NCBI GenBank assembly: GCA_045105515.1 | Contig: JBGCDR010000155.1 | Location: forward strand, 1-22,786 | Reading direction: 5' to 3' | Length of the DNA: 22,786 nt | From: Oligoflexales bacterium | GTDB lineage: Bacteria; Bdellovibrionota_B; Oligoflexia; Oligoflexales; Bog-1112 | Part shown: one piece after another, positions 3,093-21,016 of the stretch | Position numbering within the stretch: position 1 is the first letter of the stretch | How the letters are laid out: each line of letters begins with the position of its first letter | The notes under the pieces: model-generated | What the model saw: the letters and a program-made list of their open reading frames with translations, nothing else | Database searches by the model: none | Told to the model about the DNA's origin: nothing | Made by a program: the position numbers and the translations under genes

Positions 3093-3723
3093 GGCTCGTC
3101 AAGAAAAGATGACTTTAGCCGGATGTATGGCGGCGCACATCAGACGTGGGTTTGTTAAAGCAGAAAAAGCTTTGAAGAAGGCTAACCCAAAAGCAAAGAC
3201 TAAAACGTCTATACCTTTAGATTTGATAGGTGCCCTGTACAAGGTAGAAAGAGAAAGCATTGGTAAGACATATGAAGAAAGACTTAAAAAACGCCAAGCC
3301 GAATCCGTTCCTTTAATGAAACAGCTTCATAGTTGGTTAATGGCAGAAAAGCCTAAGACGCTGCCAAAATCCTTGATTGGCAAGGCGATTCGTTATGCTC
3401 TGGATCAATGGGACAAAATGCAGCATTTTTTACAAGATCCCGATGTGCCACTGGACAACAATAGATCCGAGAGAGCTATAAGACCATTTGTAATTGGTAG
3501 GTCCAACTGGATTTTCTCAAACTCCTGTGCAGGAGCGGAAGCAAGTGCCACCCTGTATTCTCTGATAGAATCAGCGAAAGCAAATGGCTTAGACCCTTTC
3601 AATTACCTTTGCGTAGTTTTCAAAGAGCTATGCAAGGCTTCAAGTTTACATGACTATGAAGGCTTGCTGCCTTACAATATTCGAACTTACTTCGATATCA
3701 AGCCACTTATAAATCCCAAATAG
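3093..3723 (+). pseudogene. tnpC: IS66 transposase TnpC, C-terminal remnant
   Basis: GCMAAHIRRGF, LPKSLIGKAIRYAL, DNNRSERAIRPFVIGRSNWIFS, YSLIESAKANGLDP. The N-terminal part is missing, and the first ORF codons (3064-3092) belong to the neighbouring IS. Confidence 0.9.
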
Positions 3724-3812
3724 AAACTCCCTCATGGGCTAACCATCTGCGATACCTTAAATCTACTTGAATAATTTAGAATAGTGAAGACGGGTCATTT
3801 CTGACCGCTTAC
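3093..3812 (+). mobile_element. IS66-family element, 5'-truncated remnant with intact right inverted repeat
   Basis: 3' part of tnpC followed by a terminus ending ...GGGTCATTTCTGACCGCTTAC (reverse complement starts GTAAGC, the IS66 signature). Confidence 0.88.
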
Positions 3813-5777
3813 GTGCGCCGCGAGGCGCACACTACCTAACTGGCTGAAATGCCAGTCTCAGCAAAGCCTAGCCAGCAGCTTAGAACCGAGTTTTGTGCAA
3901 GCTGCGGACTCATAGAGAGAAAGGAGGCAATTAAGAGAGGAACAAAGCTTGTAAAGCGTAAACAGGGCCGTCTGCAGGCCGCAACGTGAGTGAAAGGGAA
4001 TTAGCCTCGATAAGTCAAAAGAAAAGGATGAGTCGACCTTTATGTAAGCAGGGGGAAGACAGCAAGAAGCTATCTTTATGGCGAGATAGTTGATGATTCC
4101 CGGGGTTTGTACCTGTGGCATGTAGACAAGAGGTAGTGTGTGAACGCGGGAGGCCCGCAGCTTCAGCCATGGAGGCAACAAGAGAATTCAAGGTCAGGTA
4201 AACCAAGGTTCTTTTGGAAACTGCGGGAGTCGGATCATCTGATATTACTCTGAGCAGGAGAAAGATCTGTACATGGGGAAGCGGATGACAAAAGGAGAAT
4301 CTTTCAATGGAAACATAGACTCCATGCAAAGGGAGAGGATGCCTTTATTCAAAGAAAGGAATAACATTACTATGACAACAGGAATCGAAAGAATAGCAGC
4401 AAAAGCCCAAACTAACAGTAGTCTTATTTTTACTTCCCTTGCGCATCACATTACAGATGAGTTGCTTTTGGAAGAGTTGAACAAACTTAAAACGTCTCGG
4501 TCCTCTGGAATCGACAATGAGTCAGTAAAAATGGCTAAACAAAGATTCTCGGAGTGGTCGCCTAAAATGTTAAAGCAAGTCCATCAAAAAGGATATCAAG
4601 CGCCACGGATTAAAAGGGTATTTATACCTAAACCCGGTAAGGAGGAGAAACGGCCATTAGGAATTCCAACAGTTACTGACACCGTGTTACAGCGTTCAGT
4701 AGCGCGAGTAGTTGGGGCAATATTTGAGCAAGATTTTTCCAAATCTTCATTCGGAGGTAGACCCGGATGTAGTGCTCATCAAGCCATATCAAAGCTTGTG
4801 ACATCAATCCATTTGGGTCGTACCAACTATGTTCTTGAGGCGGATATCAAGAACTTCTTTGGTAGTTTAGATCATACCTGGATGATGAAGTTTGTCGAAC
4901 AAAGGGTTAAAGATCGCAGAATTCTCTCATTGATCCGAAGGTGGTTAAAAGCAGGAATATGCAGTAATGGTGAATTGGTAAGACCCTTTGAAGGTACCCC
5001 TCAAGGGGGACCGGTGAGTGTGTTATTGAGCAATATCTTTCTGCATTTTGTGCTGGATCTTTGGATAGAAAAGGTAGTGCGCCCAAGAATGACTGGTGAA
5101 GTTTACTTTGTCAGATATATTGATGATTTTGTGCTCTGCTTTCAGCGAAAGAACGATGCTTTAAGGTTTTATAGTGCTCTGCCTAAGCGGCTAAGTAAGT
5201 TCGGTCTGCAACTTGAGCCTAGTAAAACGAGACTAATTGAGTTTGGACGTTATGCCTATAGAGATGCAAAACGTTTGGGGAAAAGGCCGCAAACCTTTTA
5301 TTTCCTTGGTTTTACATTTGTTGGTAAACGTAGCGGAAAAGGATCTTTTAAGATTGAATTGAGAACTGAAAAGAAAAGGAACCATAGGGCACACCAGAAA
5401 ATAAAGGAGCTTGTTAATAACTTGAGACATGCTCCAATCTCCTTCCAGATTAATAGAATTAATGCTCTACTTAGGGGATTATATCGCTACTATGGTGTGT
5501 TAGGTAATAATCAATCAATCCGAAACTTTTATCGCTGCGCTATGGTGACTTGGCGAAAATCACTTAGCAGACGAAGTCAAAAAGGCAAGATTACATGGGC
5601 AAAATATGAGAAAATTCTTGATTACTTTAAGCTAGCAAAACCTGAAATATATCTAAATTATCAGGACGTATATAAGGCTAGCATGCTGTAAATCTCCTTT
5701 TGAAGAGGCTCGTGCGGGAAAACCGCAGGCGGGCTTCTGTGGGGAGGGAAAAGCGTCAGCTTGTTCCCTTACCCGAC
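3813..5777 (+). mobile_element. Group II intron, full length (probably bacterial class E-like, no endonuclease domain)
   Basis: 5' GTGCG at 3813, RT/maturase ORF, domain V hairpin at 5705-5737, domain VI with bulged A5771, and 3' end CCCGAC at 5777. Candidate EBS1 GTAAGC (4044-4049) is complementary to the 5' exon end GCTTAC (3807-3812). Confidence 0.93.
4372..5691 (+). CDS. ltrA: Group II intron reverse transcriptase/maturase
   Basis: FTSLAHHI, IPKPGKEEKRPLGIP, LEADIKNFF, GTPQGGPVS, RYIDDFV and a maturase X region. The ATG at 4372 follows AAAGGA; the ORF is open from 4273. Confidence 0.95.
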   Translation: MTTGIERIAAKAQTNSSLIFTSLAHHITDELLLEELNKLKTSRSSGIDNESVKMAKQRFSEWSPKMLKQVHQKGYQAPRIKRVFIPKPGKEEKRPLGIPTVTDTVLQRSVARVVGAIFEQDFSKSSFGGRPGCSAHQAISKLVTSIHLGRTNYVLEADIKNFFGSLDHTWMMKFVEQRVKDRRILSLIRRWLKAGICSNGELVRPFEGTPQGGPVSVLLSNIFLHFVLDLWIEKVVRPRMTGEVYFVRYIDDFVLCFQRKNDALRFYSALPKRLSKFGLQLEPSKTRLIEFGRYAYRDAKRLGKRPQTFYFLGFTFVGKRSGKGSFKIELRTEKKRNHRAHQKIKELVNNLRHAPISFQINRINALLRGLYRYYGVLGNNQSIRNFYRCAMVTWRKSLSRRSQKGKITWAKYEKILDYFKLAKPEIYLNYQDVYKASML

Positions 5778-5805: not shown

Positions 5806-6708
5806 TCAAATTATCCATTTTGGCCTTTTAAGAACCTTAAGAGAACCATTATGAAATAAAAATAATGCTGGATAAAGAAACCATAAGTGAAAAAAAGGTA
5901 CATTCATGGAGGAGTGTATCACACAATGAAAAGCCAATGAGATTAGACCTAAACGAACCGAACCACTAAATAAAGACAAAGCAAGTATAAATCCCAGCTC
6001 AAATATGCCCGTAGAAATACCCATAATTCTAGCTATTAATGGCTGTATTGCAAGTTCAAGCCCTAAATTTGAATTAGACTGTTGTGCTGTCAATGCCATA
6101 AATGAAAAAATAGATTCTCCTTCTGTGAACCATTTTAATCCTCCTTTTATTAGTTTTGAATATCCAGCATTCCAATATATCAACGCAACAAAAAACTGTA
6201 CAAAAGAGATATAAATTGAAGCTCTTTCCCTTTCCTTTGTCGATTTTAAGGAAGTATCACGACGAAAAAATAGTCTATCGATTGAATAATATTCACCTGA
6301 TCTTGTGAAATTTAGTGCTACTAAGAAAAAATTTATATGAGTGTTATAATTCCAAACTGTTGAAAAATGAGCAATATATCCATTAAATATAAAGAATGAA
6401 ATGGTTAGAGTTAAGACCGCTATTCGAGAAAATAAACCTAGCAAACAGAATATCGCACTGATGAAAACGAGTGATTTTAAAAAATAGTAACTATTGAAAT
6501 CTAGGGCAGGTATCGCTGAGATAATCCCTTTCGGAACGTACAATATCGGCGCAGCGTCGACATAAAATTCGTTGTAAGGAGCGAAGTGAAGTAAAACTAC
6601 AACAATAAGTCCTAAAGTCACTCGAATTAATGCTGCCCGTTCGAGAGAATTGATTTGTCGGAATAAAAAATCAAAGATGCAAGAGAATATCCAATAATAT
6701 ATCTTCAT
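5806..6708 (-). CDS. HTTM-domain (SdpB / vitamin K-dependent carboxylase N-terminal-like) membrane protein
   Basis: Multiple TM segments with LLGLFSR, YSIDRL, IYWNAGYSKL..GGLKW, FELGF and FHCVI, characteristic of HTTM proteins. Confidence 0.75.
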   Translation of the reverse strand: MKIYYWIFSCIFDFLFRQINSLERAALIRVTLGLIVVVLLHFAPYNEFYVDAAPILYVPKGIISAIPALDFNSYYFLKSLVFISAIFCLLGLFSRIAVLTLTISFFIFNGYIAHFSTVWNYNTHINFFLVALNFTRSGEYYSIDRLFFRRDTSLKSTKERERASIYISFVQFFVALIYWNAGYSKLIKGGLKWFTEGESIFSFMALTAQQSNSNLGLELAIQPLIARIMGISTGIFELGFILALSLFSGSVRLGLISLAFHCVIHSSMNVPFFHLWFLYPALFLFHNGSLKVLKRPKWII

Positions 6709-7218
6709 TCATCTATTCTCTTCTCGAAAAGAATATCCTTTGATTGTTTCCACTACCGATATTTTTTCTTTGACTAAATAGTCAGTCAAATCGTATTTAA
6801 TATAGCTAAAATCAAATCCAATAAATTCTTTCCTGTTAGGAGAAATCGCAGTCCGATAGAAACCTTGGAAAGGGCTCCAAGGGCTATTTACATGTTTCAG
6901 TACCAATTTCGCTAATTGCTGCTTCTGATTTTCATCCTTACCATACCCGTAAACTTTATTAAATATTGCATTCGCAACAAAAAACTCCACGGGTAATGCG
7001 TTGCCAGGCAACACCACCAAACTTTCCCCAGTACTATCGATCAATGTAAGTTTGTAATAGATCCCACTAATACCTACTGGTTTGGCAAACATATCATAAG
7101 GGGAGAAGGGCCAACCCAATTTATATTCATCACATAGTTGCATTGTTTGGACTAGGCCAAATACTAAAAAACTTACACCAATCATGGCTCTGGTCACTGT
7201 CCACTTTCTCTCTTTCAT
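6709..7218 (-). CDS. Hypothetical membrane-anchored protein, HTTM partner (SdpA-like arrangement)
   Basis: N-terminal TM segment followed by WPFSPYDMFA. Its stop abuts the HTTM start (TGA ATG), and the RBS GAGGGA lies upstream. Confidence 0.65.
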   Translation of the reverse strand: MKERKWTVTRAMIGVSFLVFGLVQTMQLCDEYKLGWPFSPYDMFAKPVGISGIYYKLTLIDSTGESLVVLPGNALPVEFFVANAIFNKVYGYGKDENQKQQLAKLVLKHVNSPWSPFQGFYRTAISPNRKEFIGFDFSYIKYDLTDYLVKEKISVVETIKGYSFREENR

Positions 7219-8674: not shown

Positions 8675-8935
8675 ATGGAAAGACTGCCATCAAAAATAAG
8701 ATATATGAAACCTTTATACTGGGGAGCTGGTGTTTGGATTTTAGCTTTTGCGGCGGATCAACTCAGCATCCACTCTATCGACAGTTTCAGTATAGGTCCT
8801 TTTTATGAAAAAGATGATTGCTTAGATGTGCTAAAAAAAATAGAAAAATTGAAAGAAAAAAGTTTATATGTAAAATACTCAACCAATGGGAAAATCAATT
8901 GGGGCCAAGGTAAACATTGGGACCTTAAAATATAA
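8675..8935 (+). CDS. Small hypothetical protein (86 aa)
   Basis: ORF with an AAAGGGA RBS that fills the gap between mltB and the next gene, with a short hydrophobic stretch. No family recognised. Confidence 0.45.
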   Translation: MERLPSKIRYMKPLYWGAGVWILAFAADQLSIHSIDSFSIGPFYEKDDCLDVLKKIEKLKEKSLYVKYSTNGKINWGQGKHWDLKI

Positions 8936-8951
8936 CTTAGAGAGATATTAT

Positions 8952-9959
8952 ATGAAAAATATTCCAAAAACATGGGAATGCGGCGCAGATCATTTTCAAT
9001 CAGTATTAACCAATGAATGGTATAAAGTAGTTTCTAGTTTGTTTTCAGAGGTAACTTGTACAACGATAGACTTTTTTAGAAAGGAAGGTCTTAGTCCGGT
9101 GTTACTACCTATTACTTGTCCTTCAATTTCGAGTCCTATGGGGCTCGGTAGTGACAGTTTACCTGTTGAAATTGAGTTGCATAATGAAAAAATCTATTTA
9201 GCGGATTCTATGCAATTTCATTTGGAATATCTTTTAAGGATTCAATCCCAAGGGGTATTCTACATTATGCCTACATTCAGGGGAGAAGATCCAGATGCAA
9301 CCCATTTGAATCAGTTTTTTCATGCAGAGGCTGAAATCCAGGGTGGATTCTTTGATGTTATGCAACTAGTTAATAAATACGTATTACAATTAACTAAAAA
9401 TATTAACTCGAAGCTTTCATGTGATCTAAATAAGGTAGGAATCAACACTGAACATTTAGATTTATTTATTAATTTGAATGGAAAAGTACCTGTTGTTGCG
9501 TTTGAAGATGTTTTTAATGACTTCAAAGACTCTGAATATATTGAATATATTAACTCTGATACTCCGATCATTACGAGAAAAGGTGAGCTTAAATTAATTG
9601 AAATTTTTAAAGGCCCAGTTTGGTTAAGTCATCCAAGGCACAACTCTGTACCATTCTACCAAGGTTGGAGTGAAGATAGAAAATCTGCTTTATCAGCCGA
9701 CCTTCTCCTAGGTTTAGGTGAAGTAGTTGGATGTGGAGAGCGTCACACTAGCTATCAAGATACTTATGAATCTTTAAAATCACATGGAGTTAACCATGAA
9801 GAATATGATTGGTACTTACGCTTAAAGAGAGAGTTTCCTTTGAAAACAGCTGGATTTGGTCTCGGAATAGAAAGGTTTCTCGCTTGGGTTTTAAAACATA
9901 ATGATATTCGAGACCTGGCGCTTTTCAACCGTTTAAAGGGAATTAAGTCAGCACCATAA
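8952..9959 (+). CDS. AsnRS/AspRS catalytic-domain paralog lacking the anticodon-binding domain (archaeal AsnA / AsnRS2-like ligase)
   Basis: YLADSMQFHLE, motif 2 FRGEDPDATHLNQFFHAEAE, ADLL..LGEVVGCGER, YDWY, motif 3 TAGFGLGIERFLAW. No N-terminal OB-fold. The ATG at 8952 is preferred over 8886. Confidence 0.88.
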   Translation: MKNIPKTWECGADHFQSVLTNEWYKVVSSLFSEVTCTTIDFFRKEGLSPVLLPITCPSISSPMGLGSDSLPVEIELHNEKIYLADSMQFHLEYLLRIQSQGVFYIMPTFRGEDPDATHLNQFFHAEAEIQGGFFDVMQLVNKYVLQLTKNINSKLSCDLNKVGINTEHLDLFINLNGKVPVVAFEDVFNDFKDSEYIEYINSDTPIITRKGELKLIEIFKGPVWLSHPRHNSVPFYQGWSEDRKSALSADLLLGLGEVVGCGERHTSYQDTYESLKSHGVNHEEYDWYLRLKREFPLKTAGFGLGIERFLAWVLKHNDIRDLALFNRLKGIKSAP

Positions 9960-9993
9960 TTTTTCTGAAAAAAACTCATAAATGGAGAACTAA

Positions 9994-10995
9994 ATGAATT
10001 CTGTATATGTACCACAATTAACTAAAAATGATATTGTTCATGTTGTTGCACCATCTAGGAGCATGTCAATAATTTCAAAGCAAGTACAAGATACAGCGAC
10101 GCAAAGATTAAATTCTTTCGGTCTTAATGTTTCTTTTGGAAAATATATTAATAATTCAAATAATTTTTGTACAACCACGGTCGAAGAAAGAGTAGAAGAT
10201 CTTCATTCTGCTTTTCTTGATCCAAATATTAAAGGCGTATTTTCTGTTATAGGTGGATTTTATAGTAACCATTTATTGGACTATATCGATTTTGATATAT
10301 TGAAATCAAATCCTAAAGTATTCTGTGGTTATTCAGATATCACAATCCTAGTAAATGCTATTTACAGAAAATGCGGATATATAACTTACTATGGACCTCA
10401 CTATTCAACATTAGGTATGGTTCAAGGTATCGATTATACTTTGAATAGCTTGAAAGATACTCTCTTTAGTTTTTCAGATAACGGTCTGACAATTGAGCCA
10501 TCCAGGAAATGGAGCGATGATCTTTGGTTTTTAGATCAAGATAAACGAGTGTTTATTGAAAATAGTGGACCAGTTGTTTTGAATAAAGGTATTGCAAAAG
10601 GACGTGCGATAGGAGGTAATCTTTTTGCTTTTGATTCGTTGAGAGGGACAGAATATATGCCAGATCTTGAAGATTCTATTCTATTTCTCGAATGTGATGA
10701 TACTCATGGGGACCTCACTCCTGCTCTATTTGATAAAATTATTTACTCAATTTTGCAGCATAAGGGTGCTAAAGGTATCAAAGGAATAGTCCTTGGTCGT
10801 TTTCAGAATTCCTGTAAATTTGATGAGTTAACACTATGTGACATTCTAAAAGCGAAAAATATGTTATCAGGCATCCCAATTGTTTATAATATGAGTTTTG
10901 GTCATACTACACCACAGTTCACTATTCCTATTGGTGCTGATACGATTTTAGATACTCAAGACTCTGAAAATGTTTGCTTACAATTCAAAAGGTAA
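9994..10995 (+). CDS. S66 family peptidase (LD-carboxypeptidase / MccF-like)
   Basis: VAPSRS, IGGFYSN, GYSDIT (Ser), GGNL, LFLE (Glu), FGHTTP (His). No signal peptide. Confidence 0.93.
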   Translation: MNSVYVPQLTKNDIVHVVAPSRSMSIISKQVQDTATQRLNSFGLNVSFGKYINNSNNFCTTTVEERVEDLHSAFLDPNIKGVFSVIGGFYSNHLLDYIDFDILKSNPKVFCGYSDITILVNAIYRKCGYITYYGPHYSTLGMVQGIDYTLNSLKDTLFSFSDNGLTIEPSRKWSDDLWFLDQDKRVFIENSGPVVLNKGIAKGRAIGGNLFAFDSLRGTEYMPDLEDSILFLECDDTHGDLTPALFDKIIYSILQHKGAKGIKGIVLGRFQNSCKFDELTLCDILKAKNMLSGIPIVYNMSFGHTTPQFTIPIGADTILDTQDSENVCLQFKR

Positions 10996-11001
10996 TTTTA
11001 T

Positions 11002-12294
11002 ATGTTAAGTCTTGAAAAAATTAAGGATATTTGTTTAAAAAGAGGATTTTTTTATAAACAAAATTGCGGTTCTTTAGAAGGGATTTACGAGTTAGGTCCC
11101 CTAGGTGTTATTTTAAAAAATAATATTATTTCCTCATGGAAACATAGTCTGCTTTCAAGAGACTATGAGATATACTCAATGGAAACTAGTAATCTGACTC
11201 CTCTTAAAGTTTGGGAAGTATCTCAGCATACAAAAAATTTTCATGACCCCGTAACTACCTGTACTCGTTGTAGCTTATCTTTCAGAACAGACAAATGTGA
11301 ACATGACCTAAAAGATAGTAAAGTAATTTATTACTGTCCAAAATGTGGCAATGAGAGTCATTCTATTGTTTCAAAATCATCTTTGCTGTTTGAAACAAAT
11401 GTTAACTTGAATGCAAAAAAAGAAAGTAAATTTATTTTACGGCCTGAAGGCTCACAACTAGTATATTTGCAGTACAAAAATTTAATAGATTCTATGAATG
11501 CTAAAATTCCTTTCGGAGTGTCTCATATAGGCCGATCTTTTCGAAACGAGACATTCGATGCGAACTCTTTTATTTTTCGTTCACTGGAATTTGACCAGTT
11601 AGATGTTCAATTTTTTGTTTCTGAATCCGAGGCCATAAAATATTTGGATATATGGACCAACAGACGGTTAGAATGGTATAAAAAGCTTTCCAATAATCCT
11701 GCAAACTATATAGCGAAGACTATTCCTCAGGATGATAGGAGCCATTATTCAAGCCAAACCAACGACATTTTATTTAATTTCCCATGGGGTAAAGATGAAA
11801 TTGAAGGAGTTGCTTGCAGAAATGATCTCCTAGGACTAAAAAATTTTTTCCCTCATGCTTTTGAGGGGGTTCGACAAGAAGACTTACCTTTTGTCATCGA
11901 GCCAAGTGCTGGATTGCAGCGAATGATATTATCCTTTCTTTTTGATGCTGCGGTAGAAAGTGAGTCAACCAACCAAGTCAATCTGAATATTCATCATGAT
12001 TTAGTCCCATATCATGTTTCTATAAACATCAACGGGAGCATGCCTCTTGTAAATTTATGGGAAGATTTGCATCAAAAAAACAAGAATATTCGAATCAATA
12101 AAACTTGTGAGTCTGAAAACAAAATATTTGAACTAATAAATAATCAAATTGGGACATTGTGGACGATTAGTAAAGATATGTCTGGATATGGGTATATTCT
12201 AAAGCACAGAGACAAAGATCTGCATCATTTTGACACATTAGAGTCATTGTCTAATCGATTAGCACTAGATTTTGAAAAATTACAGGATATATAA
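11002..12294 (+). CDS. Divergent glycyl-tRNA synthetase (alpha2 type) paralog with a degenerate anticodon-binding domain
   Basis: CLKRGF, YELGPLG, CxxC...CxxC, LRPEGSQ, IGRSFRNE, FIFRSLEFDQLD, FPWGKDEIEG, PFVIEPSAGLQR. The C-terminal domain lacks [15 protein letters not shown]. Confidence 0.88.
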   Translation: MLSLEKIKDICLKRGFFYKQNCGSLEGIYELGPLGVILKNNIISSWKHSLLSRDYEIYSMETSNLTPLKVWEVSQHTKNFHDPVTTCTRCSLSFRTDKCEHDLKDSKVIYYCPKCGNESHSIVSKSSLLFETNVNLNAKKESKFILRPEGSQLVYLQYKNLIDSMNAKIPFGVSHIGRSFRNETFDANSFIFRSLEFDQLDVQFFVSESEAIKYLDIWTNRRLEWYKKLSNNPANYIAKTIPQDDRSHYSSQTNDILFNFPWGKDEIEGVACRNDLLGLKNFFPHAFEGVRQEDLPFVIEPSAGLQRMILSFLFDAAVESESTNQVNLNIHHDLVPYHVSININGSMPLVNLWEDLHQKNKNIRINKTCESENKIFELINNQIGTLWTISKDMSGYGYILKHRDKDLHHFDTLESLSNRLALDFEKLQDI

Positions 12295-12298
12295 AGAT

Positions 12299-13582
12299 AT
12301 GAATACAAAAAAACCAGATAAAAAAGAGTTTATTAAGAACATTCTTTTCTGTAAGTGGGATCATGTTTTTCTAAAAACAGCTCTTGAAAGTAATCATGTA
12401 TGCCATTTGGTTCTCGACAAATATGATGCAAAAAGTCATGATTTCAATAAGGAGTTAGCTGATAAGTGTGCATCGTTTATTACAGTTAGTTCTTTCGATT
12501 CTATTGAAGAACTTTCAGCGGTAGCTGGGCATTTTATATCTTCGGAGATAAAAATTGATTTCGTTGTAAGCAATGGAGAGTATGGCCATTATGGAGCTGG
12601 TTTACTGGGATCTATTTTTGAGGTTCCAAATATTAATATTCATTCTGTAACCTCTGTCAGAGATAAGATATTGATGAAGAAAATGGCTGTTGATGGGGGG
12701 TTGCGTGCAGCATCTTATACCTCCATACCAGATATATCTGATATCTCAAACTTTAAAAGTAAATTGAGACATTTATCTTATCCTCTTGTACTAAAGCCTT
12801 CTAATGGTGTGGGTACAAGGTATACTTATATACTTAAAAATGACCAGGACTTAAAAGTCGCAGCTGAAGAAATAAGTAGTAACCTATGTCCTCCCCTTTA
12901 TTCTAGAAGTTTTATCATCGAAGAATTCATACCTGGTGAGGAATATAATATCGATGCCGTTTGGTTAAATGGTAAACCTGTTCTTTTTTCGATCGCAAAA
13001 TATTTTTCTCCGGTAATTCAGTACAAGAATAGCACTGTAGGATTGAGAATTTTAAACAAAGAAGATCATGAAGAACTCTATGAAGAATTATATAGCATGA
13101 ATATAAAAGCTAATAAAATTTTCAATATAAGAAATGGTTTAACACATATGCAAGTCTTAAAAGAACCTGGTAAGCCAGCTGTTTTTACAGAGATTGCCAC
13201 TCGTCATTGCGGAGGGTATGGTTGTGAAGCGATTGAGAAAAAGTGGGGTATAGATAATCGAGAAGCTTTTATTAGAATTCTACTTGGATGTGAGAAATCG
13301 GACTTGGCATTTAATGAAACACCTCATAAACACGTAGGATATTTTAACGTATCTCCGGAAAATCCTGGTGTAGTCGTCAATTCGCCTAATCCTGAAGAAA
13401 TAAAAAAGTTCAATGGAGTATTAGAAGTAAAACAGTGTCTTTTCGATGGAGAAGATTATGCGAATGACTATGGATGCAATTGGACGATGCTGGTACTTGT
13501 TGGAACGGAATCGATTGATAAGTTCCATGAAATTGTCAACACCGTGAACGAAAAATTTAAATATCAAACGGTTGGTAACTGA
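12299..13582 (+). CDS. ATP-grasp ligase (L-amino acid ligase-like), copy 1
   Basis: RDKILMK, YPLVLKPSNGVGT, FIIEEFIPGEE, HMQV, TEIATRHCGG. The ATG at 12299 is preferred. Confidence 0.9.
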   Translation: MNTKKPDKKEFIKNILFCKWDHVFLKTALESNHVCHLVLDKYDAKSHDFNKELADKCASFITVSSFDSIEELSAVAGHFISSEIKIDFVVSNGEYGHYGAGLLGSIFEVPNINIHSVTSVRDKILMKKMAVDGGLRAASYTSIPDISDISNFKSKLRHLSYPLVLKPSNGVGTRYTYILKNDQDLKVAAEEISSNLCPPLYSRSFIIEEFIPGEEYNIDAVWLNGKPVLFSIAKYFSPVIQYKNSTVGLRILNKEDHEELYEELYSMNIKANKIFNIRNGLTHMQVLKEPGKPAVFTEIATRHCGGYGCEAIEKKWGIDNREAFIRILLGCEKSDLAFNETPHKHVGYFNVSPENPGVVVNSPNPEEIKKFNGVLEVKQCLFDGEDYANDYGCNWTMLVLVGTESIDKFHEIVNTVNEKFKYQTVGN

Positions 13583-13583
13583 C

Positions 13584-14858
13584 GTGAATATTTTATTTTG
13601 TAAATGGGATAAGTCTTATCTAGAACTAATGCTAGCTCAAGGATTAAAAGTGTGGCAAGTATTAGATGATTTTGACAAGAATCTTAACAATCTTGATGCT
13701 GATTTGCTTGCTAAGTGTGAAAATATATTCTATGTCAGATCTTTTGACTCGATTGAGGAGATCGCTTCCATTGCCTCTTCACTAATTTCTGAAAATGTGA
13801 AAATTGAACATGTTGTTAGTAATGGTGAATATTCTATTTACGGATCAGCAGTTTTAAAGTCGATTCTTGGGCTTGAAGGTAATGCTGTGTTGAAAGGGCT
13901 ATGCTACCGTGATAAAAGAGCGATGAAACAGAAACTAAGAAAAAATCAGATTAGAACTGCCCGTTATGTATCCGTTTCAAATATTCATGATATTCATGAT
14001 CTATATGATAAAGCCCTCCAGATTGGTTTCCCAGTGGTTGTAAAACCGGCAAATGGGGTTGGAACACGGCTAACAGCTGTACTAAGGAATGCTAATGAAC
14101 TTAATGAATTCCACCAAAGGGTAATTGCTGAAATTAAACCTCCCATTTTTTCGTCACAATTTATTGTCGAAGAATATATTAAAGGTCAAGAATTCCATGT
14201 AGACGGGGTCTGGGCAGAGGGAAGAAATATTTGTTTTTCAGCAGGCAGGTACCATGCTCCATGCGTAGAGTTTAAGGAAAAGTTTTATGGATCTATGTTG
14301 CTAGATGAAAAGAATGATGAACACTGTCTTAAGGAACTTTTTGAGTTAAATAAGAATGTTAATCGTGCCCTTGGTATTTGTGATGGGCCTACTCATCTCG
14401 AAGTCTTTCTAGATTGTAACGGTGAATTTGTTGTATCGGAGATGGCAACAAGAATTGGTGGTGGGTTTATTATGGAAGCTAATCTGGAAAAAGATAATAC
14501 CTGTTTCAGATCCAATCATGTTAAAGTTCTGGTGAATCCAAGGAACTTTTCAAAATCTGAGCCACCACCTTCCCAATTGAAGGTGAGGTATTTCGGTTTT
14601 ATTAACTTGACACCAAAAGAAGAAGGCGTAATTACATCTATACCAAGCATCGATTCTTTAAAGAGTCATCCCGGAATTCTTCGTTTCCAGTTGCGTGCGA
14701 ATATTGGCGACTCTTTTAAGCACAGTCATGGTGGGAATTGGATACTTATGGTAGTTATCGCAGCACCTTCTGAAGAAGAATATCAGATGCTATGTAAAGA
14801 GATCATTGAAAAATTTATAATTCAAACGGTCCCTTTTATTTCTAAGGTAACTAATTAA
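13584..14858 (+). CDS. ATP-grasp ligase (L-amino acid ligase-like), copy 2
   Basis: [53 protein letters not shown]. The start is either GTG 13584 or TTG 13572. Confidence 0.9.
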
Positions 14859-14875
14859 TTTTAACATTTTATGAC

Positions 14876-16186
14876 ATGAGAAACCCTATGTTAGACAAGA
14901 TGAAAATGATTACGGCACTCTGTAAAAAACGTGGATTCGTATTTCAAAGCTCTGAAATTTATGGTGGCCTCTCAGGTGCTTGGGATTATGGGCCTTTGGG
15001 ATCTGAACTTAAGGCTAATATTAAAAAATTGTGGTGGGAGCACATGACCTACCGGCAAGATATTGTAGGAATAGATTCGGCAATTTTAATGAACCCAGAG
15101 GTCTGGAATACTTCTGGTCATGTCAAAAATTTTAGCGATCCTATGGTTGATTGCAAAATTTGTAAGCATCGCTTTAGAGCTGATACGATCGACTTAAACG
15201 CTCCTTGTCCAAATTGCCAATCTGAAAATAGCTTTACTGAGCCGCGTGATTTCAATCTACTATTTGAAACCTCTTTAGGATCAGTAAAAGATCACCAAAG
15301 TAAAGTTTATCTTCGACCTGAAACTGCTCAAGGAATTTTTGTAAATTTTATTAATGTACAGAAATCAACCCGAAAAAAAATTCCTTTTGGAATAGCTCAA
15401 ATAGGAAAATCCTTTCGAAACGAGATAACTCTTGAAAATTTTATCTTTCGAACTCGCGAATTTGAACAAATGGAAATGCAATATTTTGTTGAACCAGGCT
15501 CTCAATCAGCCCATATAGCCCAATGGAAAGAAGTAAGGATAAACTGGCTAAAAAGTTTGGGTTTTAATCAAGATAATTTGCGTTTTGTCGACCACGACAA
15601 GCTAGCGCACTATGCAGATGAAGCAGTAGATATTGAATATAATTTCCCAAAATTTGGTTGGAGTGAACTTGAAGGAATACATTCTCGAACAGATTTTGAC
15701 ATTAAGGGTCATATGGATGCTTCAGGCAAGAACTTACAGTATGTAGATCCTATTAATGGAAAGAAGTTCTGCCCATATGTGGTAGAAACTGCCATAGGGT
15801 GTGACAGGTTGTTTTTAGCTTTGTTATGTGAGGCTTTAGTAACAGATTCCGAAGATGATGATTTAGATAGGGCTTTATTGAAGCTAGATCCAAAAATTGC
15901 ACCTATAAAAGCAGCTATTTTACCCCTGCAAAATAAACCTGCTATCACTGAATTAGCTATAAAAACTTTTGATGATCTCAGAAAAAGGTTTAAAACAGAT
16001 TATGACACCTCTGGATCTATAGGTAAAAGGTATCGTAGGCAAGATGAAATAGGAACTCCTTATTGTGTGACTTTTGATTTCGATACTATAGAAGATAAAA
16101 AAGTTACGGTAAGGAATAGAGACACTGCTCAGCAATCTCGCGTCGAATTGTCTCATCTACAAAAGTATCTAGAGGATAGGATCTAA
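14876..16186 (+). CDS. glyQS: Glycine--tRNA ligase (alpha2 dimeric type), intact
   Basis: [95 protein letters not shown]. Confidence 0.96.
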
Positions 16187-16192
16187 CTTTCA

Positions 16193-17434
16193 ATGAAAAG
16201 TCAGGAAAAAATTTTTATTCTGTTGCTTCTTCAAGCGTTAGCATTGACAGGGTCCTCTTTGACAGGCTTTGCTCTTCCGTTATTGCTTTTTAAAGGTTCT
16301 GATCAGATTTCTGGCCTTGGATTACTATATTTTTTTCAAATATGGCCTGGCTTTTTAGTTAGCTTTCTAGCAGGATATATTACAGACCGATTCTCAAGGA
16401 GATGGGTGTCAATTATTTCATTGATAGCATATCTTTTGAATTTAGCCTGTCTTGGATTCTTTCATCATTTTAATAGTTTGGATAGATTAATCATCTATTT
16501 TTTTACTATAAATCTTTCCATAATTAATGCTTTTCAAGCATTATCTCTCTGTACCCTTATAAGTGAAAATGTGCGAAATGAAACTAGAGTTCTCGTTAAT
16601 ATTTTACTATCTCTCCGTAACACTGTCCCACGGCTATTGGCTCCAGCATTGTCCGGATTTCTAGTAGCACAAAATGAGATCAGTACAATTGTAGAAATTG
16701 ATTTCATAATTCATATCTTGTTTCTTTTTGTAGTTTTTGTTCTGTCTCATAATTTTAATAGTAGTAAAGATAATCAAATAAAATTGTTAGATTATAAAAA
16801 AGTGCTTTCGTTTATTGGTAAACAAAAAACTATGCAAAAGACTTTATTAAGTCTTTTGCATACTAATGCTACCACTTCAGTTTTTGGAGTTTTTATTATT
16901 CCTATTGCACTGAATTTTATGAACGAACACCAAATAGGTTTTAATTTGTCTATGGGTGGGATTGGGAGTGTTGTGGGAGCTTGCTGTTTTCAACGAAACT
17001 TTTTCAAACTTAATTTGAACCATATTTTGTTTTTTAGTCATTTAATTCAAGGTTTTTCTTTATTTTTTTTGGTAATTTTTTCATTTTATGATTACTTTGG
17101 CTTATTTTTATTTTTCTACTTTTTTACAGTTCCTATTCAAAATGGGCATAGCTATAGTGTTTGGCAAGAAAGTACCAATCCTTCGCTTTATGGACGCTTA
17201 TTTGCGTCTAAGGGAATGATTCTTCAAGCTAGTAGTATTATAGTTTTTTTTCTTATAGGCTACATTGGAGATTGGATTCTAATTCCAACTACAAGTAGAA
17301 TCCTTTCCCCAGATAAAGGTTATCTTGGGTTGTGTTTCTTTATATCGGCCTTAGGAATTACACATATTATTGCAGCATCTAGAATTTTTCTCCGCTCACG
17401 GCTAATATCAGAGTTTCAATATGAAAAGGTATAA
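16193..17434 (+). CDS. MFS transporter (DHA3/MefA-like exporter)
   Basis: About 12 hydrophobic segments, motif A GYITDRFSRR, and WQESTNPSLYGRLFA. Confidence 0.9.
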   Translation: MKSQEKIFILLLLQALALTGSSLTGFALPLLLFKGSDQISGLGLLYFFQIWPGFLVSFLAGYITDRFSRRWVSIISLIAYLLNLACLGFFHHFNSLDRLIIYFFTINLSIINAFQALSLCTLISENVRNETRVLVNILLSLRNTVPRLLAPALSGFLVAQNEISTIVEIDFIIHILFLFVVFVLSHNFNSSKDNQIKLLDYKKVLSFIGKQKTMQKTLLSLLHTNATTSVFGVFIIPIALNFMNEHQIGFNLSMGGIGSVVGACCFQRNFFKLNLNHILFFSHLIQGFSLFFLVIFSFYDYFGLFLFFYFFTVPIQNGHSYSVWQESTNPSLYGRLFASKGMILQASSIIVFFLIGYIGDWILIPTTSRILSPDKGYLGLCFFISALGITHIIAASRIFLRSRLISEFQYEKV

Positions 17435-18392
17435 AAATTTTTCGTTGGACCTAGGTCGATGGAATCATTCAACACTAGAAAATTTGATGGAACATTGTCA
17501 AGTTAACAAAAAAACTGCAAATGAGCGGATTGCATTTTGGATGGAGGAATTGATATCTATTCCTTTCGCCTTCGAATCGCAAAGAATGTGGCCCGAAAAA
17601 GGTCACATTCGTGTGGATTTAGAAACAATGGACTGTATGACTCTAGTATATTATGTTTTAGCCCTTTCTCGAAGTAGAGATATTAATGAATTTTTATCGC
17701 AGATTTGTTCTTTTCGTTATCATGGAGATGGATTAATAGATAGTGACCCAGAGAAGGGAAATATATTTAATTTTGCTTCTGAAGCATTTCTGAAAAATGC
17801 TATATCTAGGAAAATATTTATTGATTTAACTAGTGATTTAGTACCTAAAAAATATTTAGGTATTTTCTCAGCAAATCTAAAAAAAATTAGGCGCGCAAAG
17901 CTAATAGATATAAACCAGAATTTTATTAGCCCCATAACACAAGGTCGAGTTAGAAGTGAATTTATCGTAAAAGATGGATTTCCATACGTTTTTAAAGACA
18001 AAATTAAATCTGGGGATCTAATTTTATTTGGTAAGAAAAATAAAAATGATGACGAAGAACTTCCGATGCTGATAGCTCATCTAGGTTTTGTATATAGACC
18101 CCACGATGAAACTAATGGAAAAATAGGTTTGTATCACTCCACTAGGCATTTCCATTGGAATCCAAACGGAAATATTGACTCTCGACCACGTTTTACAGGT
18201 TTTTTTTATGATACAGAAAGAAAAAAAGAGCAAATAGGAACAGGTGTTGCAGGTGTTTTTGCTGGTGAGCATACTAAAACCATTGTAAATCCCAATTCAA
18301 CATGTTATGGGATGAATCAGGATGAAATAAGATCTATATTTGACTACGCCTCTTTTTCATTTGATGGTTTTAAGATTTTAAGACCTTTATAA
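17421..18392 (+). CDS. DUF1460 / NlpC-P60-like cysteine hydrolase (AmiA-like amidase fold), no signal peptide
   Basis: LETMDCMTLVYYVLALSRS (Cys), FRY, IKSGDLI, IAHLGF (His), LYHST, GFKILRP. Confidence 0.78.
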   Translation: MKRYKNFSLDLGRWNHSTLENLMEHCQVNKKTANERIAFWMEELISIPFAFESQRMWPEKGHIRVDLETMDCMTLVYYVLALSRSRDINEFLSQICSFRYHGDGLIDSDPEKGNIFNFASEAFLKNAISRKIFIDLTSDLVPKKYLGIFSANLKKIRRAKLIDINQNFISPITQGRVRSEFIVKDGFPYVFKDKIKSGDLILFGKKNKNDDEELPMLIAHLGFVYRPHDETNGKIGLYHSTRHFHWNPNGNIDSRPRFTGFFYDTERKKEQIGTGVAGVFAGEHTKTIVNPNSTCYGMNQDEIRSIFDYASFSFDGFKILRPL

Positions 18393-18457
18393 CCCTATAA
18401 AAAATAAAGATATTTGTTAATTAAAAAATAAATTTAAAATAGACATGGAAACACAAA

Positions 18458-19747
18458 ATGTTAAAATCATTGGATCTAGTAGCATCTGAAAACAAACAAA
18501 GCCCGTTGGTTCGAGCACTTCATTTAAGTAGTTACGGTGAAAAATATTATTTAAGCAACGAAATATTTGAAGATAAAAAAGACAGTCCTTATCCTGTAGA
18601 TGAATTTTTTCCCAAATTATTAATTGCAGGAAATAAATTGATTGCAGGCTTATTTAATGCCAATTGGTGTGATCCTCGACCATTATCGGGTACACACGCC
18701 ATGAACTGCTTATTGGCGGGTTTTGGGGACTTTGGTGATAATATTACAATAACTCCGGAGGTTAATAGTGGACATTTTGCTACTAGCTATATGGCTACTC
18801 GTCTAGGATTAAATAGTTCTTTTTCTTTGTATGACAAAGAAAAATATACTATTGATCCAATAAAGACAGCAGAGGTGATCAATACAAATAAGCCTTCGAT
18901 TGTAACATTAGATGCTAGCCATGTTTTATTTCCTCATCCATTAAAAGAGTTAAAGTCATATTTGAACTATAATCCTCTTATTGCATATGATGCCAGTCAC
19001 ACCATGGGCTTAATAGTGCATAAGATTTTTCAAGATCCATTTGAAGATGGTGCAGATATTATTCATGGAGGAACTCATAAGACATTTCCTGGTCCTCAAA
19101 AAGCAATATTCCTTGGAAAAAATGAAGAAATTCGTCAAAGAGTAGACGGTGTAATTTTTCCTAGATTTAGTTCTAATTTTCATTTACACCACATTATCAG
19201 CCTTTATGGTGCGGCATTGGAAGCTTTAGTATTTGGTAAATCATATGCAAACCAAGTTATCAAAAATGCTCAACATTTAGGTAAATGTATGCATGAAGCA
19301 GGACTTCCTGTAATGGCTGAGGATCATGGATTCACCAAATCTCATCAATTATGGTTAAATATTTCTGCTGATAAAGTTCCTCTACTAAATGAAATGGGAA
19401 TTCGAGCAACTGTTTTTGTCATTCCTGGAACTGATGGGCAACAAAAGGGGATTCGTCTCGGAACTCAAGCCATAACTAGGATGGGCTTCCAAGAGAAGGA
19501 TATGCAGGCCGTTGCAGGTTTTATTAAACAAGGTTTGATGGATAACAAGAACAGTAAACTTCTAAGGAATGAGGTTAGTGATTTTGTTAAAAAATTTGAA
19601 GGTATCTCTTTTGCTTTCAAAGATATTAAAGCAATTGTAGACGCCCATCCAGTTGGGGGTTTGTTGGCAGAGCATATGGAAGAAGGTGGATTAGACAAAA
19701 TATTTCAACACTTGGTCTGTGCTCCAACATTTTCAAACCAAAATTAA
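18458..19747 (+). CDS. SHMT-fold PLP enzyme, L-threonine transaldolase-like (LipK/ObiH/AbmH type)
   Basis: LDLVASEN, RPLSGTHAM, YDASHTMGL, GGTHKTFPGPQKA (canonical SHMT has TTTHKTLRGPRGG), TKSHQLW, GIRLGTQAITRMG. Confidence 0.85.
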   Translation: MLKSLDLVASENKQSPLVRALHLSSYGEKYYLSNEIFEDKKDSPYPVDEFFPKLLIAGNKLIAGLFNANWCDPRPLSGTHAMNCLLAGFGDFGDNITITPEVNSGHFATSYMATRLGLNSSFSLYDKEKYTIDPIKTAEVINTNKPSIVTLDASHVLFPHPLKELKSYLNYNPLIAYDASHTMGLIVHKIFQDPFEDGADIIHGGTHKTFPGPQKAIFLGKNEEIRQRVDGVIFPRFSSNFHLHHIISLYGAALEALVFGKSYANQVIKNAQHLGKCMHEAGLPVMAEDHGFTKSHQLWLNISADKVPLLNEMGIRATVFVIPGTDGQQKGIRLGTQAITRMGFQEKDMQAVAGFIKQGLMDNKNSKLLRNEVSDFVKKFEGISFAFKDIKAIVDAHPVGGLLAEHMEEGGLDKIFQHLVCAPTFSNQN

Positions 19748-20055
19748 TGGCGGTTAGTAGCTTTTTGTAAACGAGTTATTGAAATCTTTTTTGATACAAC
19801 CCAGTTTTGCCGGTAAACTTAAGCATAATGGCCCAGGTTATATAAGGCTCTAATTATATGCATTAAATGTTGCTATTACAGCTCTGATCACTTCCTGACC
19901 ATTGCTGTCCATTTTGTCCTTTTTGTCTATATAAAAGTTTGGAACAAGAAGCCACGAAAACGAGCAGAAATTTATATCGACTTCGAAAATTTTTAAGCCA
20001 CAATCCTCTTAAATTCATAAAAATACACTAGTGTTACGTAAAATAGAAAATCACC

Positions 20056-20287: not shown

Positions 20288-20635
20288 ATGGCTAAGAAGA
20301 AAAGTTTAAGTCGAGATATCTGGGAGATGCATATTTGGAAGTGGAGCAATAGTTCCCTCTCGATTACTAATTACTGCACGGAAAACTCTCTGTCGCGGCA
20401 GTCATTTTATAAGTGGAAAGGAATTTTCCACGATAAGACCCCAGAGAAAAGGGTGATTGAGCATCCTAAGAAGGAGGAATTTATTCCTGTAGAAGTTGCC
20501 CCCTCCAAAACTTTATCAAATAGCGGTCAAATTAAATTAAGCTTTACGTCAAATGACGGTCAGATATTCAGCCTAGAATCTTCGGACATGAATATGATGA
20601 TGAAATTATGCCAATTTCTCCAGGGTGCAAGATGA
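20288..20635 (+). CDS. tnpA: IS66 accessory protein TnpA
   Basis: W..HI..W..SSLSITNYC...LS..SFYKWK and FIPVEV; first ORF of the IS66. Confidence 0.9.
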   Translation: MAKKKSLSRDIWEMHIWKWSNSSLSITNYCTENSLSRQSFYKWKGIFHDKTPEKRVIEHPKKEEFIPVEVAPSKTLSNSGQIKLSFTSNDGQIFSLESSDMNMMMKLCQFLQGAR

Positions 20636-20982
20636 GATCCGTAGAAAGTTTTGAAAAGATATTTCTATATCCTAAGGCCGTTGATATGAGGAAACAAATA
20701 AATGGCTTGGCTCATATAGTGGAGTCGTCAGCTCTCAAACTTTTCAGCCCTAGCTTGTTTCTTTTTTCCAACCGTCACAGGAAGCTTGTTAAAGCCCTTT
20801 ACTGGGCTGACACCGGATTTTGTCTTTGGATGATGAAACTGGAAGAAAATCGTTTTCCTTGGCCCAAAAGCTCAGATAAACACCTTATTCTTTCTCCCGA
20901 GCAATTTAATTGGCTTATAAAAGGCGTGGATTTTAGCAAAATTAAGCCGCATCAAACCTTGCAATATGAGCGTTTTTCATAG
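20632..20982 (+). CDS. tnpB: IS66 accessory protein TnpB
   Basis: VDMRKQINGL, LFLFSNR, KALYWADTGFCLWMMKLE, FPWP. ATGA overlap with tnpA. Confidence 0.93.
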   Translation: MRSVESFEKIFLYPKAVDMRKQINGLAHIVESSALKLFSPSLFLFSNRHRKLVKALYWADTGFCLWMMKLEENRFPWPKSSDKHLILSPEQFNWLIKGVDFSKIKPHQTLQYERFS

Positions 20983-21016
20983 ATGAAACAGCGATTATTT
21001 TGTATACTTTTTTCTT

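Follow-up and report, generated by a model that had tools for sequence, protein, structure and literature searches.

What is a diverged copy of glycyl-tRNA synthetase (GlyRS) doing in an operon that already holds an intact one? The question is raised by one gene in a 22,786-nucleotide stretch of DNA from an Oligoflexales bacterium (assembly GCA_045105515.1; 6.29 Mb in 461 contigs), namely contig JBGCDR010000155.1 (contig C155), referred to throughout as the window:

11002 to 12294, + strand: diverged GlyRS-derived gene (the paralog), ATG start, 430 amino acids, no internal stops

Our analyses suggest, with about an even chance of being right, that the paralog is a biosynthetic enzyme which forms glycyl-adenylate without reading an anticodon, and that it belongs to a cluster for a nucleotide antibiotic directed against GlyRS, in which the intact copy is the resistant target. 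The finding as such is a cluster-borne derivative of an aminoacyl-tRNA synthetase (aaRS) in what appears to be an aaRS-inhibitor pathway; derivatives of this kind are already known.

The origin of the gene can be told from several comparisons. In BLASTP the paralog aligns with the intact GlyRS at 14876 to 16186 over 362 columns with 32% identity (E 7e-56), and the four pairs of motifs that the initial annotation had quoted from the two copies are all seen in the alignments, the paralog versions being LRPEGSQLVY, LEFDQLDVQ (REFEQMEMQ in GlyRS), EIEGVACRND and SENKIFELINNQIGTL; a GlyRS paralog does indeed lie beside an intact copy in the same operon. Among solved chains, GlyRS from Mycobacterium thermoresistibile, M. 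tuberculosis and Thermus come nearest (E 3e-50 to 1e-42), and Pfam finds tRNA-synt_2b alone in the 430 residues (32.4 bits, cutoff 29.3). The paralog misses the cutoffs of the canonical alpha2 GlyRS families, scoring 252.6 bits with NCBIfam NF003211 (cutoff 312) and 184.5 with TIGR00389 (cutoff 243.3); with NF003211 the eight other GlyRS tested score 596–634, the values for the two others of the genome being 613.5 (the intact neighbour) and 610.6 (a separate housekeeping enzyme of 504 amino acids on contig C433). It is a singleton, the best match other than itself having 37% identity in a search of 5.8 billion clusters and 36% (E 1.8e-54) in an exhaustive search of 1.84 billion representatives. 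Judged by its sequence, the open reading frame is a derivative of dimeric-type GlyRS.

Whether such a protein could still activate glycine depends on two regions:

11446 to 11604, + strand: core of the glycyl-adenylate site; E149 (in RPE), R181 and E183 (motif 2), F197 and Q199 kept, D201 in place of Glu
11899 to 11922, + strand: motif 3, IEPSAGLQR; E300, S302 and R307 kept

We mapped the contacts that M. tuberculosis GlyRS makes with glycyl-sulfamoyl-adenosine, as described in the part of PMC12208437 available to us (the source, to that extent, of all statements attributed to that paper), onto an alignment of the paralog with other GlyRS. Arg197, Glu199, Phe212, Gln214, Glu165, Glu324 and Arg331 are kept as R181, E183, F197, Q199, E149, E300 and R307, and E266 likewise matches a contact; Ala326 corresponds to S302, and human GlyRS likewise has serine there. 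For the lid motif [AS]HY[AS] the paralog has SHYS with Y249, and the metal and ribose ligands are retained. Motif 2 (SFRNE, with R181 and E183) and motif 3 (with E300, S302 and R307) are intact, and the class II arginines and the adenine-stacking phenylalanine (R181, E183, F197 and R307) all stand in invariant columns, so that the ATP-binding motifs are kept as had been proposed, together with all four cysteines of the insertion domain (C87, C90, C112 and C115).

Departures from the canonical site are few. Glu218 is replaced by Q203, at a variable position where the intact neighbour has the same substitution, and Thr209 by S194 in a variable column. Only one invariant ligand contact is altered: Glu216, a position with Glu in 63/63 GlyRS, has become D201, and this leaves the glutamate triad for the glycine amine incomplete, with E149 and E300 kept and aspartate as the third member; the exchange is conservative and the function may persist. 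Next to E149 the paralog reads G-S-Q-L against the usual T-A-Q-G, and GSQ occurs in 0/149 representatives checked for the pattern, in which the variants are TAQ, TCQ, TSQ, TTQ, LAQ, NAQ and ACQ. The counterparts of E300 and S302 discriminate the glycine amine and C-alpha (PMC12208437), and since the residues that exclude a side chain (Glu324, Ala/Ser326) are intact, glycine or a glycine-sized substrate is likely. The initial annotation spoke of a remodelled amino-acid pocket; this is an overstatement, D201 being the only change at a conserved contact while S302, SHYS and Q199 are kept, and the largely conserved pocket gives no indication of a new amino-acid specificity. Residues that stack on A76 of the tRNA in M. 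tuberculosis GlyRS (PMC12208437) are also kept: Phe83 as F80, His79 as H76, Pro162 as P148, and the motif-2 arginine as R181. Independence from tRNA, as originally suggested for the paralog, is thus something that we infer and that the alignment does not by itself convey.

It is in the parts that handle tRNA that the paralog departs most clearly from its relatives:

11056 to 11079, + strand: counterpart of the YxG loop (residues 19–26), with a 2-residue deletion and with Tyr and Gly replaced by C22 and S24
11989 to 12291, + strand: last 101 residues, occupying the position of the anticodon-binding domain but no longer similar to it in sequence

The YxG loop is both a dimer contact and a loop at the tRNA acceptor stem, and it is one of two loops, with that of motif 2, that become ordered on tRNA binding (PMC12208437). 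Its tyrosine is found in 97% and its glycine in 98% of the 63 GlyRS, and the paralog has lost both; its motif-2 loop is one residue longer. In the segment after NRTD, which is about 10 residues shorter, an invariant His has become F282 and a near-invariant Asp G278. In the C-terminal part, about 11 residues are missing between the first strand and the SIGKRY position, residues 330–430 alone match no Pfam family at E ≤ 10, HGTP_anticodon is absent from the Pfam scan of the whole paralog (72.1 bits in the intact neighbour), and hhalign against a profile of eight canonical GlyRS C-domains gives a probability of 2.4% over 12 columns. A few columns still coincide in global alignments (IGT; R403 and D404). 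The net charge of the domain, taken as a proxy for RNA binding, is -2, and 15 of the 63 GlyRS have an equal or lower one, so that it is of little help here. The anticodon motif reported as lost is indeed absent, yet what has gone is any recognisable trace of the whole domain and not the motif alone; the label 'anticodon motif' for SIGKRYRR itself derives from conservation within the domain and not from a cited contact map. In sum, the adenylation residues and the A76 pocket are kept, while the anticodon domain and the acceptor loops are degraded. Once freed from translation, the paralog would have lost the ability to read an anticodon.

How much of the fold survives can be judged only in part. 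An AlphaFold2 model gives the C-terminal part an alpha/beta architecture that superposes on the Mtr GlyRS C-domain, residues 1–430 of the model aligning with residues 2–461 of the chain (Z 25–27), and Foldseek returns E-values down to 3e-29. The block 341–380 has a pLDDT of 33–49, with residues 344–370, 372–378 and the motif-2 loop below 50; with values so low, and with canonical GlyRS as the alignment behind the model, the C-domain fold may have survived, but the model does not show that it has. Chains of Pol gamma B, which has the GlyRS fold, come as close to the model as those of GlyRS (Z ~25). Paralogs of aaRS that work without tRNA are familiar from HisZ, EpmA/PoxA and the amino acid:carrier-protein ligases. 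These, AsnA of the archaeal type and proteins of the Pol gamma B kind reuse a class II core for adenylation or binding after loss of tRNA recognition, as the paralog may do; none of them, however, is a bacterial GlyRS derivative, and Pol gamma B has lost the catalytic residues that the paralog keeps.

The precedent of HisZ raises the possibility of a non-catalytic or regulatory partner, which would form a heterodimer with GlyRS 14876 or another cluster enzyme and tune its activity or its sensitivity to the drug. In dimeric-type GlyRS it is indeed the catalytic domains that pair (PMC12208437), the model retains most of the fold as its Z-scores against GlyRS chains suggest, and the paralog shares an operon with the intact enzyme; but the YxG loop, a named element of the dimer interface, is deleted or changed, and conservation is concentrated on catalytic residues and not on an interface alone. 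We regard such a partner as improbable.

Has the gene been maintained, or is it on its way out? The frame has a terminal stop only, where 2000 mononucleotide shuffles contain 33.2 stops on average and 15 at the least, and the other five frames of the same stretch contain 20–46. In a GlyRS tree of 64 rows, built by a quick method with SH-aLRT as its only support, the paralog has the longest terminal branch (3.35 substitutions per column; median 0.76). It groups with neither of the other GlyRS from the genome, and its placement is poorly supported. Seventy columns are conserved in at least 90% of the 63 other GlyRS, and the paralog keeps 51/70 of them (56–70 in the others, median 68). This retention is uneven, with 45/56 kept in the catalytic part and 6/13 in the C-terminal part, one column being gapped. 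An AAGG-type ribosome-binding site lies 10–15 nt upstream of the gene (counted to the A of ATG). Positions 8800 to 19800 are found in single contigs of three DNA runs from one study, possibly the one that yielded the genome, with 0 differences, so there are no variants from which pN/pS could be taken.

An alternative is that the gene is a decaying, functionless duplicate, open by chance on recently acquired mobile DNA. The long branch, the singleton status, the scores under family cutoffs and the insertion sequence (IS) elements that flank the island speak for this. An unselected frame as diverged as this one would be expected to hold about 33 stops, though, and has none; the residues kept are strongly catalytic; and the gene sits in a tightly packed operon behind its ribosome-binding site. 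The argument against decay that the initial annotation drew from the unbroken 430-residue frame is borne out by the shuffles and by the catalytic columns, and we consider decay very improbable. An open frame and catalytic-biased retention despite the long branch indicate a gene that is selected and not decaying, and the alignment is best read as selection on the catalytic core with the C-terminal part released.

Selection for what purpose is suggested by the neighbouring genes. The paralog is one of nine + strand genes that form an operon from 8886 to 19747, with gaps of -23 to 65 nt and a G+C content of 0.32–0.37, slightly under that of the genome (0.383). The other eight are as follows:

8886 to 9959, + strand: AgnA-family gene, an asparaginyl-tRNA synthetase (AsnRS) catalytic core without anticodon domain; probable start 8952, 335 amino acids
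9994 to 10995, + strand: S66 serine peptidase of the MccF branch (Pfam Peptidase_S66 and S66C); candidate self-immunity or processing hydrolase
12272 to 13582, + strand: ATP-grasp ligase 1, L-amino-acid-ligase-like (Pfam ATP-grasp_4); likely start 12299
13572 to 14858, + strand: ATP-grasp ligase 2, L-amino-acid-ligase-like (Pfam ATP-grasp_4); likely start 13650
14876 to 16186, + strand: intact second GlyRS, 436 amino acids (NF003211 613.5, HGTP_anticodon 72.1); candidate resistant target and/or glycyl donor
16193 to 17434, + strand: MFS transporter, candidate exporter (Pfam MFS_1, 63.2 bits)
17421 to 18392, + strand: AmiA-like or DUF1460-type protein (Pfam AmiA-like, 36.9 bits)
18458 to 19747, + strand: SHMT- or threonine-transaldolase-like pyridoxal phosphate enzyme (Pfam SHMT, 66.7 bits)

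The protein at 8886 scores 118.4 bits with Pfam tRNA-synt_2 and 246.7 with the NCBIfam model for asparagine synthetase A (cutoff 322), and its 335-residue form is present in the protein collection, as are a 427-residue form of ATP-grasp ligase 1, whose likely start falls 4 nt past the paralog stop, and a 402-residue form of ATP-grasp ligase 2, in which LAL_C2 is weak and under its cutoff (26.3 bits). Among solved chains the S66 peptidase is closest to the MccF-like BA_5613 of B. anthracis (E 3e-90), followed by E. coli MccF (~2e-31) and LdcA (~1e-16). The SHMT-like enzyme, which may supply or use glycine, scores 225.9 bits as a fluorothreonine transaldolase and 209.5 as SHMT in NCBIfam, both under the cutoffs. 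GlyRS 14876 has a tree branch of 0.94 against the median of 0.76; it enters motif 3 as VVETAIG, where most GlyRS have VIEPSAG and the cluster copies from Firmicutes described below have IIESTxG. The residues concerned line the glycine pocket, and their exchange could bear on insensitivity to an inhibitor.

The window contains no tRNA gene and no riboswitch or T-box, its one Rfam match being a group II intron, and counts of promoter-like and terminator-like signals in it are at the level of shuffled sequence. Pfam finds no carrier-protein gene in the operon, no Fem, CDPS or other known family that uses aminoacyl-tRNA among the operon proteins, and no ThiF/MccB family among the window proteins scanned. 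An AgnA homologue, an MccF-like peptidase, two ATP-grasp ligases, an MFS pump and an intact GlyRS additional to the housekeeping one make a context in keeping with biosynthesis, and the role of the paralog probably lies inside a mobile biosynthetic operon of the agrocin 84 or microcin C kind and not in translation.

Resemblance to the agrocin 84 cluster, taken here from plasmid pAgK84 of Rhizobium rhizogenes K84 (CP000632.1), is direct for two genes. When compared with plasmids by tblastn the protein at 8886 matches agnA, annotated 'Agrocin84-synthetase', with 39.8% identity over 95% of the query (E 2e-61), and the reciprocal search places AgnA on the genome at 8922–9941 of the window (E 7.8e-76). 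The S66 peptidase matches AgnC5, an 'MccF-like protein', with 28% identity (E 1e-39), and AgnC5 as query matches 10012–10971. The plasmid annotation runs from agnA through an S-adenosylmethionine methyltransferase, agnB2 ('Agrocin 84-resistant leucyl-tRNA synthetase') and agnC1 to agnC5, with more genes between. In the part of PMC8323819 that was available, on which all statements attributed to it depend, AgnA has an aaRS-type adenylation domain and is proposed to join an amide precursor to AMP through a phosphoramide, AgnC1 is remotely ProRS-like and another candidate for this step, AgnB2 confers immunity as a LeuRS about 1000-fold less sensitive than the housekeeping enzyme, and a MetRS is carried by actinobacterial agn-like clusters.

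The two clusters share, then, a homologous AgnA-type enzyme with an aaRS core, an MccF-like S66 peptidase, an extra intact aaRS beside the housekeeping copy (AgnB2 there, GlyRS 14876 here), an export pump, mobile DNA and a second, degenerate aaRS-like gene (AgnC1 there; PMC8323819). They differ in the aaRS type, leucyl in the one and glycyl in the other, and in the two ATP-grasp ligases, the SHMT-like enzyme and the AmiA-like protein that the window adds; apart from the AgnC5 match, the window holds no homologues of AgnC2–C7 or of AgnD.

Two further systems suggest how the parts might work together. In albomycin biosynthesis the SerRS AbmK is itself resistant to the product and also provides seryl-adenylate, which AbmF then couples to a nucleoside amine (PMC8323819). 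The initial annotation had named AbmF as an analogous aaRS paralog, which is mistaken in that AbmF takes its seryl-adenylate from AbmK; since AbmF only consumes what AbmK makes, AbmK is the better analogue. The Streptomyces albomycin cluster resembles the present one in a cluster-borne aaRS that serves resistance and adenylate supply, and in a product that mimics an aminoacyl-adenylate (PMC8323819); unlike the paralog, however, AbmK is a complete SerRS; AbmF does not belong to the aaRS paralogs, and there is a siderophore part there and none here. By analogy the two GlyRS-derived genes of the window could divide the two jobs of AbmK, and a division of labour of this kind, with GlyRS 14876 as the resistant target and the paralog as glycine activator, would be the simplest account. 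Microcin C (mccABCDEF) shares the MccF-type S66 peptidase and the MFS pump, and its product, a peptide on a non-hydrolysable aminoacyl-adenylate, is an aaRS inhibitor directed at AspRS; in the window, by contrast, ThiF/MccB was not found by Pfam in the scanned reading frames, and a short precursor-peptide gene was not searched for. By analogy again, the ATP-grasp ligases could replace the ribosomal peptide of microcin C.

Under the biosynthetic reading the paralog would still form glycyl-adenylate and would pass the glycyl group to a small nitrogen nucleophile instead of tRNA-Gly, for which ammonia, or an adenosine-bearing amine or phosphoramidate sitting in the place of A76, are candidates; alternatively a partner ligase would receive the adenylate, much as AbmF is served by AbmK. 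A non-hydrolysable mimic of glycyl-adenylate would then be made with the help of the AgnA homologue, and the ATP-grasp ligases might add amino acids to it as an uptake handle. The MFS pump would export the product, and the producer would be protected by the MccF-like peptidase together with the intact GlyRS 14876.

Immunity might also be the business of the paralog itself. As a pseudo-synthetase and decoy it would sequester a glycyl-adenylate-like product or intermediate without turnover. Adenylate-binding residues kept beside degraded tRNA-handling parts would fit this, the gene adjoins that of the immunity-type MccF-like peptidase, and the exchange of the invariant Glu for Asp could trade catalysis for binding. 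Against it stand three plausible immunity devices already present (the peptidase, the pump and the intact GlyRS), the cost of stoichiometric sequestration, and the retention of the lid Tyr249 and of metal and ribose ligands important for chemistry, on account of which we think a decoy quite unlikely.

Related clusters place the biosynthetic reading in perspective. A search of species-representative genomes with an AgnA-family alignment gave 293 confirmed stretches, of which the best 80 were kept as loci (L016–L095), their genes being counted by tblastn. Three of these loci, all from Firmicutes, carry two GlyRS genes:

L063, 11926 to 16675: Firmicutes double-GlyRS stretch
L068, 13041 to 16874: Firmicutes double-GlyRS stretch
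L093, 2425 to 7881: Firmicutes double-GlyRS stretch

Each contains an AgnA-like gene, an unknown protein of ~320 amino acids, a GlyRS, an S66 peptidase and a second GlyRS; L063 and L093 also have a methyltransferase, L068 a radical SAM gene. The ~320-residue protein, which is conserved among the three and precedes the first GlyRS, has no match in the genome of the window. A third GlyRS lies elsewhere in each of the three genomes (1.2–1.6 Mb), so that two cluster GlyRS with one housekeeping enzyme occur four times, the window included. GlyRS activity is evidently wanted twice in such clusters. The Firmicutes cluster copies are all canonical (596–634 bits, all with HGTP_anticodon) and form one clade in the tree; loss of tRNA reading is particular to the window.

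This brings forward another possibility, namely that the paralog is a stripped-down but still tRNA-dependent GlyRS, which charges tRNA-Gly or one isoacceptor through its acceptor end and either feeds the pathway or serves as a drug-insensitive back-up. The full-length Firmicutes copies with their anticodon domains favour it, as does the preservation of the A76-stacking F80, H76, P148 and R181 together with the whole adenylate site, and acceptor minihelices can be charged by class II catalytic cores. On the other hand, both acceptor-stem loops are altered, by the YxG deletion and the motif-2 insertion; the C-domain is unrecognisable in sequence; the operon proteins include no aminoacyl-tRNA-using family known to Pfam and the window no tRNA gene; and an intact GlyRS already lies three genes downstream. 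We hold tRNA-dependent charging to be unlikely, if not remotely so.

Among the 80 AgnA loci an S66/MccF-like gene is present in 65 (E ≤ 1e-8), or in 64 at E ≤ 1e-10 with ≥ 40% coverage and 63 with AgnC5 as query; an AgnB1-like methyltransferase occurs in 32–35, an ATP-grasp ligase in 20, and an aaRS or aaRS-like gene (Pro-, His-, Met-, Lys- or Gly-type) in 22. The last figure comes from seven queries (Pro-like, His-like/HisRS, Met-like, LysRS and GlyRS) and is a lower bound for the types tried, and some of the genes counted may be housekeeping neighbours; L063 and L067, for instance, have relA upstream, and L075 and L082 contain bona fide HisRS and LysRS. Several of the genes fall far short of their family cutoffs: L026 has a Pro-like gene of 392 amino acids without anticodon domain (109 bits, cutoff 558), L017 another of Pro-like type (140.6 bits, cutoff 437), L022 a Met-like one (215.5 bits, cutoff 336) and L043 a His-like one (~91 bits, cutoffs 272–287). 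AgnC1 and the Pro-like protein of L026 show no similarity in BLASTP. Loci with AgnA and an MccF-like peptidase look like a widespread family of agrocin-84-like clusters, and the loci span Actinomycetota, Bacillota, Pseudomonadota, Myxococcota, Chlamydiota, Elusimicrobiota and Patescibacteria.

Several results count against a paralog that activates glycine for an antibiotic of this family. D201 at the invariant Glu216 position could weaken glycine activation instead of retuning it, and the AlphaFold2 model is only moderate overall (mean pLDDT 69.2, pTM 0.64). Both cluster copies in the Firmicutes being canonical, the function of such clusters generally requires no loss of tRNA reading and could use Gly-tRNA. 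The agrocin 84 pathway that serves as model is itself described as unresolved (PMC8323819), AgnC1, considered as the counterpart of the paralog, shows no detectable BLASTP similarity to it, and no match to the AgnB1 or the L016-type methyltransferase is found on the contig. None of the 80 AgnA loci has a homologue of the AmiA-like or the SHMT-like gene, and the cluster may therefore follow a chemistry other than that of agrocin 84. Finally, the two database searches yielded no orthologues of the paralog for dN/dS or covariation, and no RNA runs containing the locus are listed.

A broader proposal, which we put forward tentatively and consider possible but doubtful, is that the AgnA/MccF-like clusters form a widespread and modular family of aaRS-inhibitor pathways in which the aaRS-derived genes set the warhead and predict the target. 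The window would then be the first natural member directed at GlyRS and a non-ribosomal counterpart of microcin C, with a glycyl-N-phosphoramidate adenylate completed by the AgnA homologue. No natural product against GlyRS is named in the available part of PMC8323819 or in the papers returned by full-text literature searches; none of those papers dealt with a GlyRS paralog from bacteria or with a cluster for biosynthesis that contains GlyRS, and the searches on MccF with asparagine synthetase and ATP-grasp gave nothing on this cluster type beyond PMC8323819. A resistant-looking GlyRS and a specialised GlyRS derivative in one cluster are a concrete lead to a GlyRS-directed compound, and the paralog is a lead to how an aaRS core turns from charging tRNA to acyl transfer onto small molecules. 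The combination of AgnA, an MccF-like peptidase and a variable aaRS-type gene (22/80 loci, many phyla) offers a rule for genome mining in which the extra aaRS type would predict the target, and the cluster family could help to settle the agrocin 84 pathway.

Some of the related loci deserve a note of their own. In a Deltaproteobacteria metagenome-assembled genome (L016, 440–7053), AgnA-like, methyltransferase, S66, MFS, ATP-grasp and PurD-like genes stand in a row; the last resembles phosphoribosylamine-glycine ligase (106.7 bits, cutoff 288) and might attach glycine to an amine without the aid of an aaRS. Vibrio ostreicida (L022, 5078–15381) and Photobacterium galatheae (L036) have AgnA-like, diverged MetRS-like, S66, ThiF-rhodanese, TfuA, YcaO and methyltransferase genes, and are the only related loci with a ThiF gene. 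On six Pantoea agglomerans plasmids an AgnA-like match (40–41% identity) falls under a gene annotated 'GNAT family N-acetyltransferase'; AgnA may here be fused to an acetyltransferase of the MccE type. The ATP-grasp neighbours were tried as a path to related clusters and rejected: the ATP-grasp protein search returned one outside match at E ≤ 1e-20, and the sole strong match among 131 genomes of the phylum (G016:C22, E 1.5e-61) lies in a different cluster without aaRS. That stretch (L015, 1687–7736), from a genome of the same family, reads ATP-grasp, class V aminotransferase (805 amino acids), ATP-grasp and MFS, and is probably a dipeptide-type pathway.

Mobile DNA borders the operon on both sides:

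3064 to 5691, + strand: IS66 transposase fragment followed by a group II intron, left mobile DNA (NCBIfam, Rfam)
20288 to 22555, + strand: IS66 element (orf, TnpB_IS66, DDE transposase; Pfam), right boundary of the operon

Between the left mobile DNA and an SLT_2 transglycosylase gene, 5806 to 7218 on the - strand carries reading frames of 300 and 169 amino acids, for which no significant Pfam and no NCBIfam match was found, the shorter having a sub-threshold RNF180_C hit (E 0.0062, 17.3 bits, cutoff 27). The left IS66 fragment covers 3064–3723, the intron is recognised at 3847–4114 (Rfam RF02005, 87.8 bits) and its reverse transcriptase/maturase frame extends over 4273–5691; the intron may have landed in or beside IS66. 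Genes of IS21/IS481 type also flank the operon.

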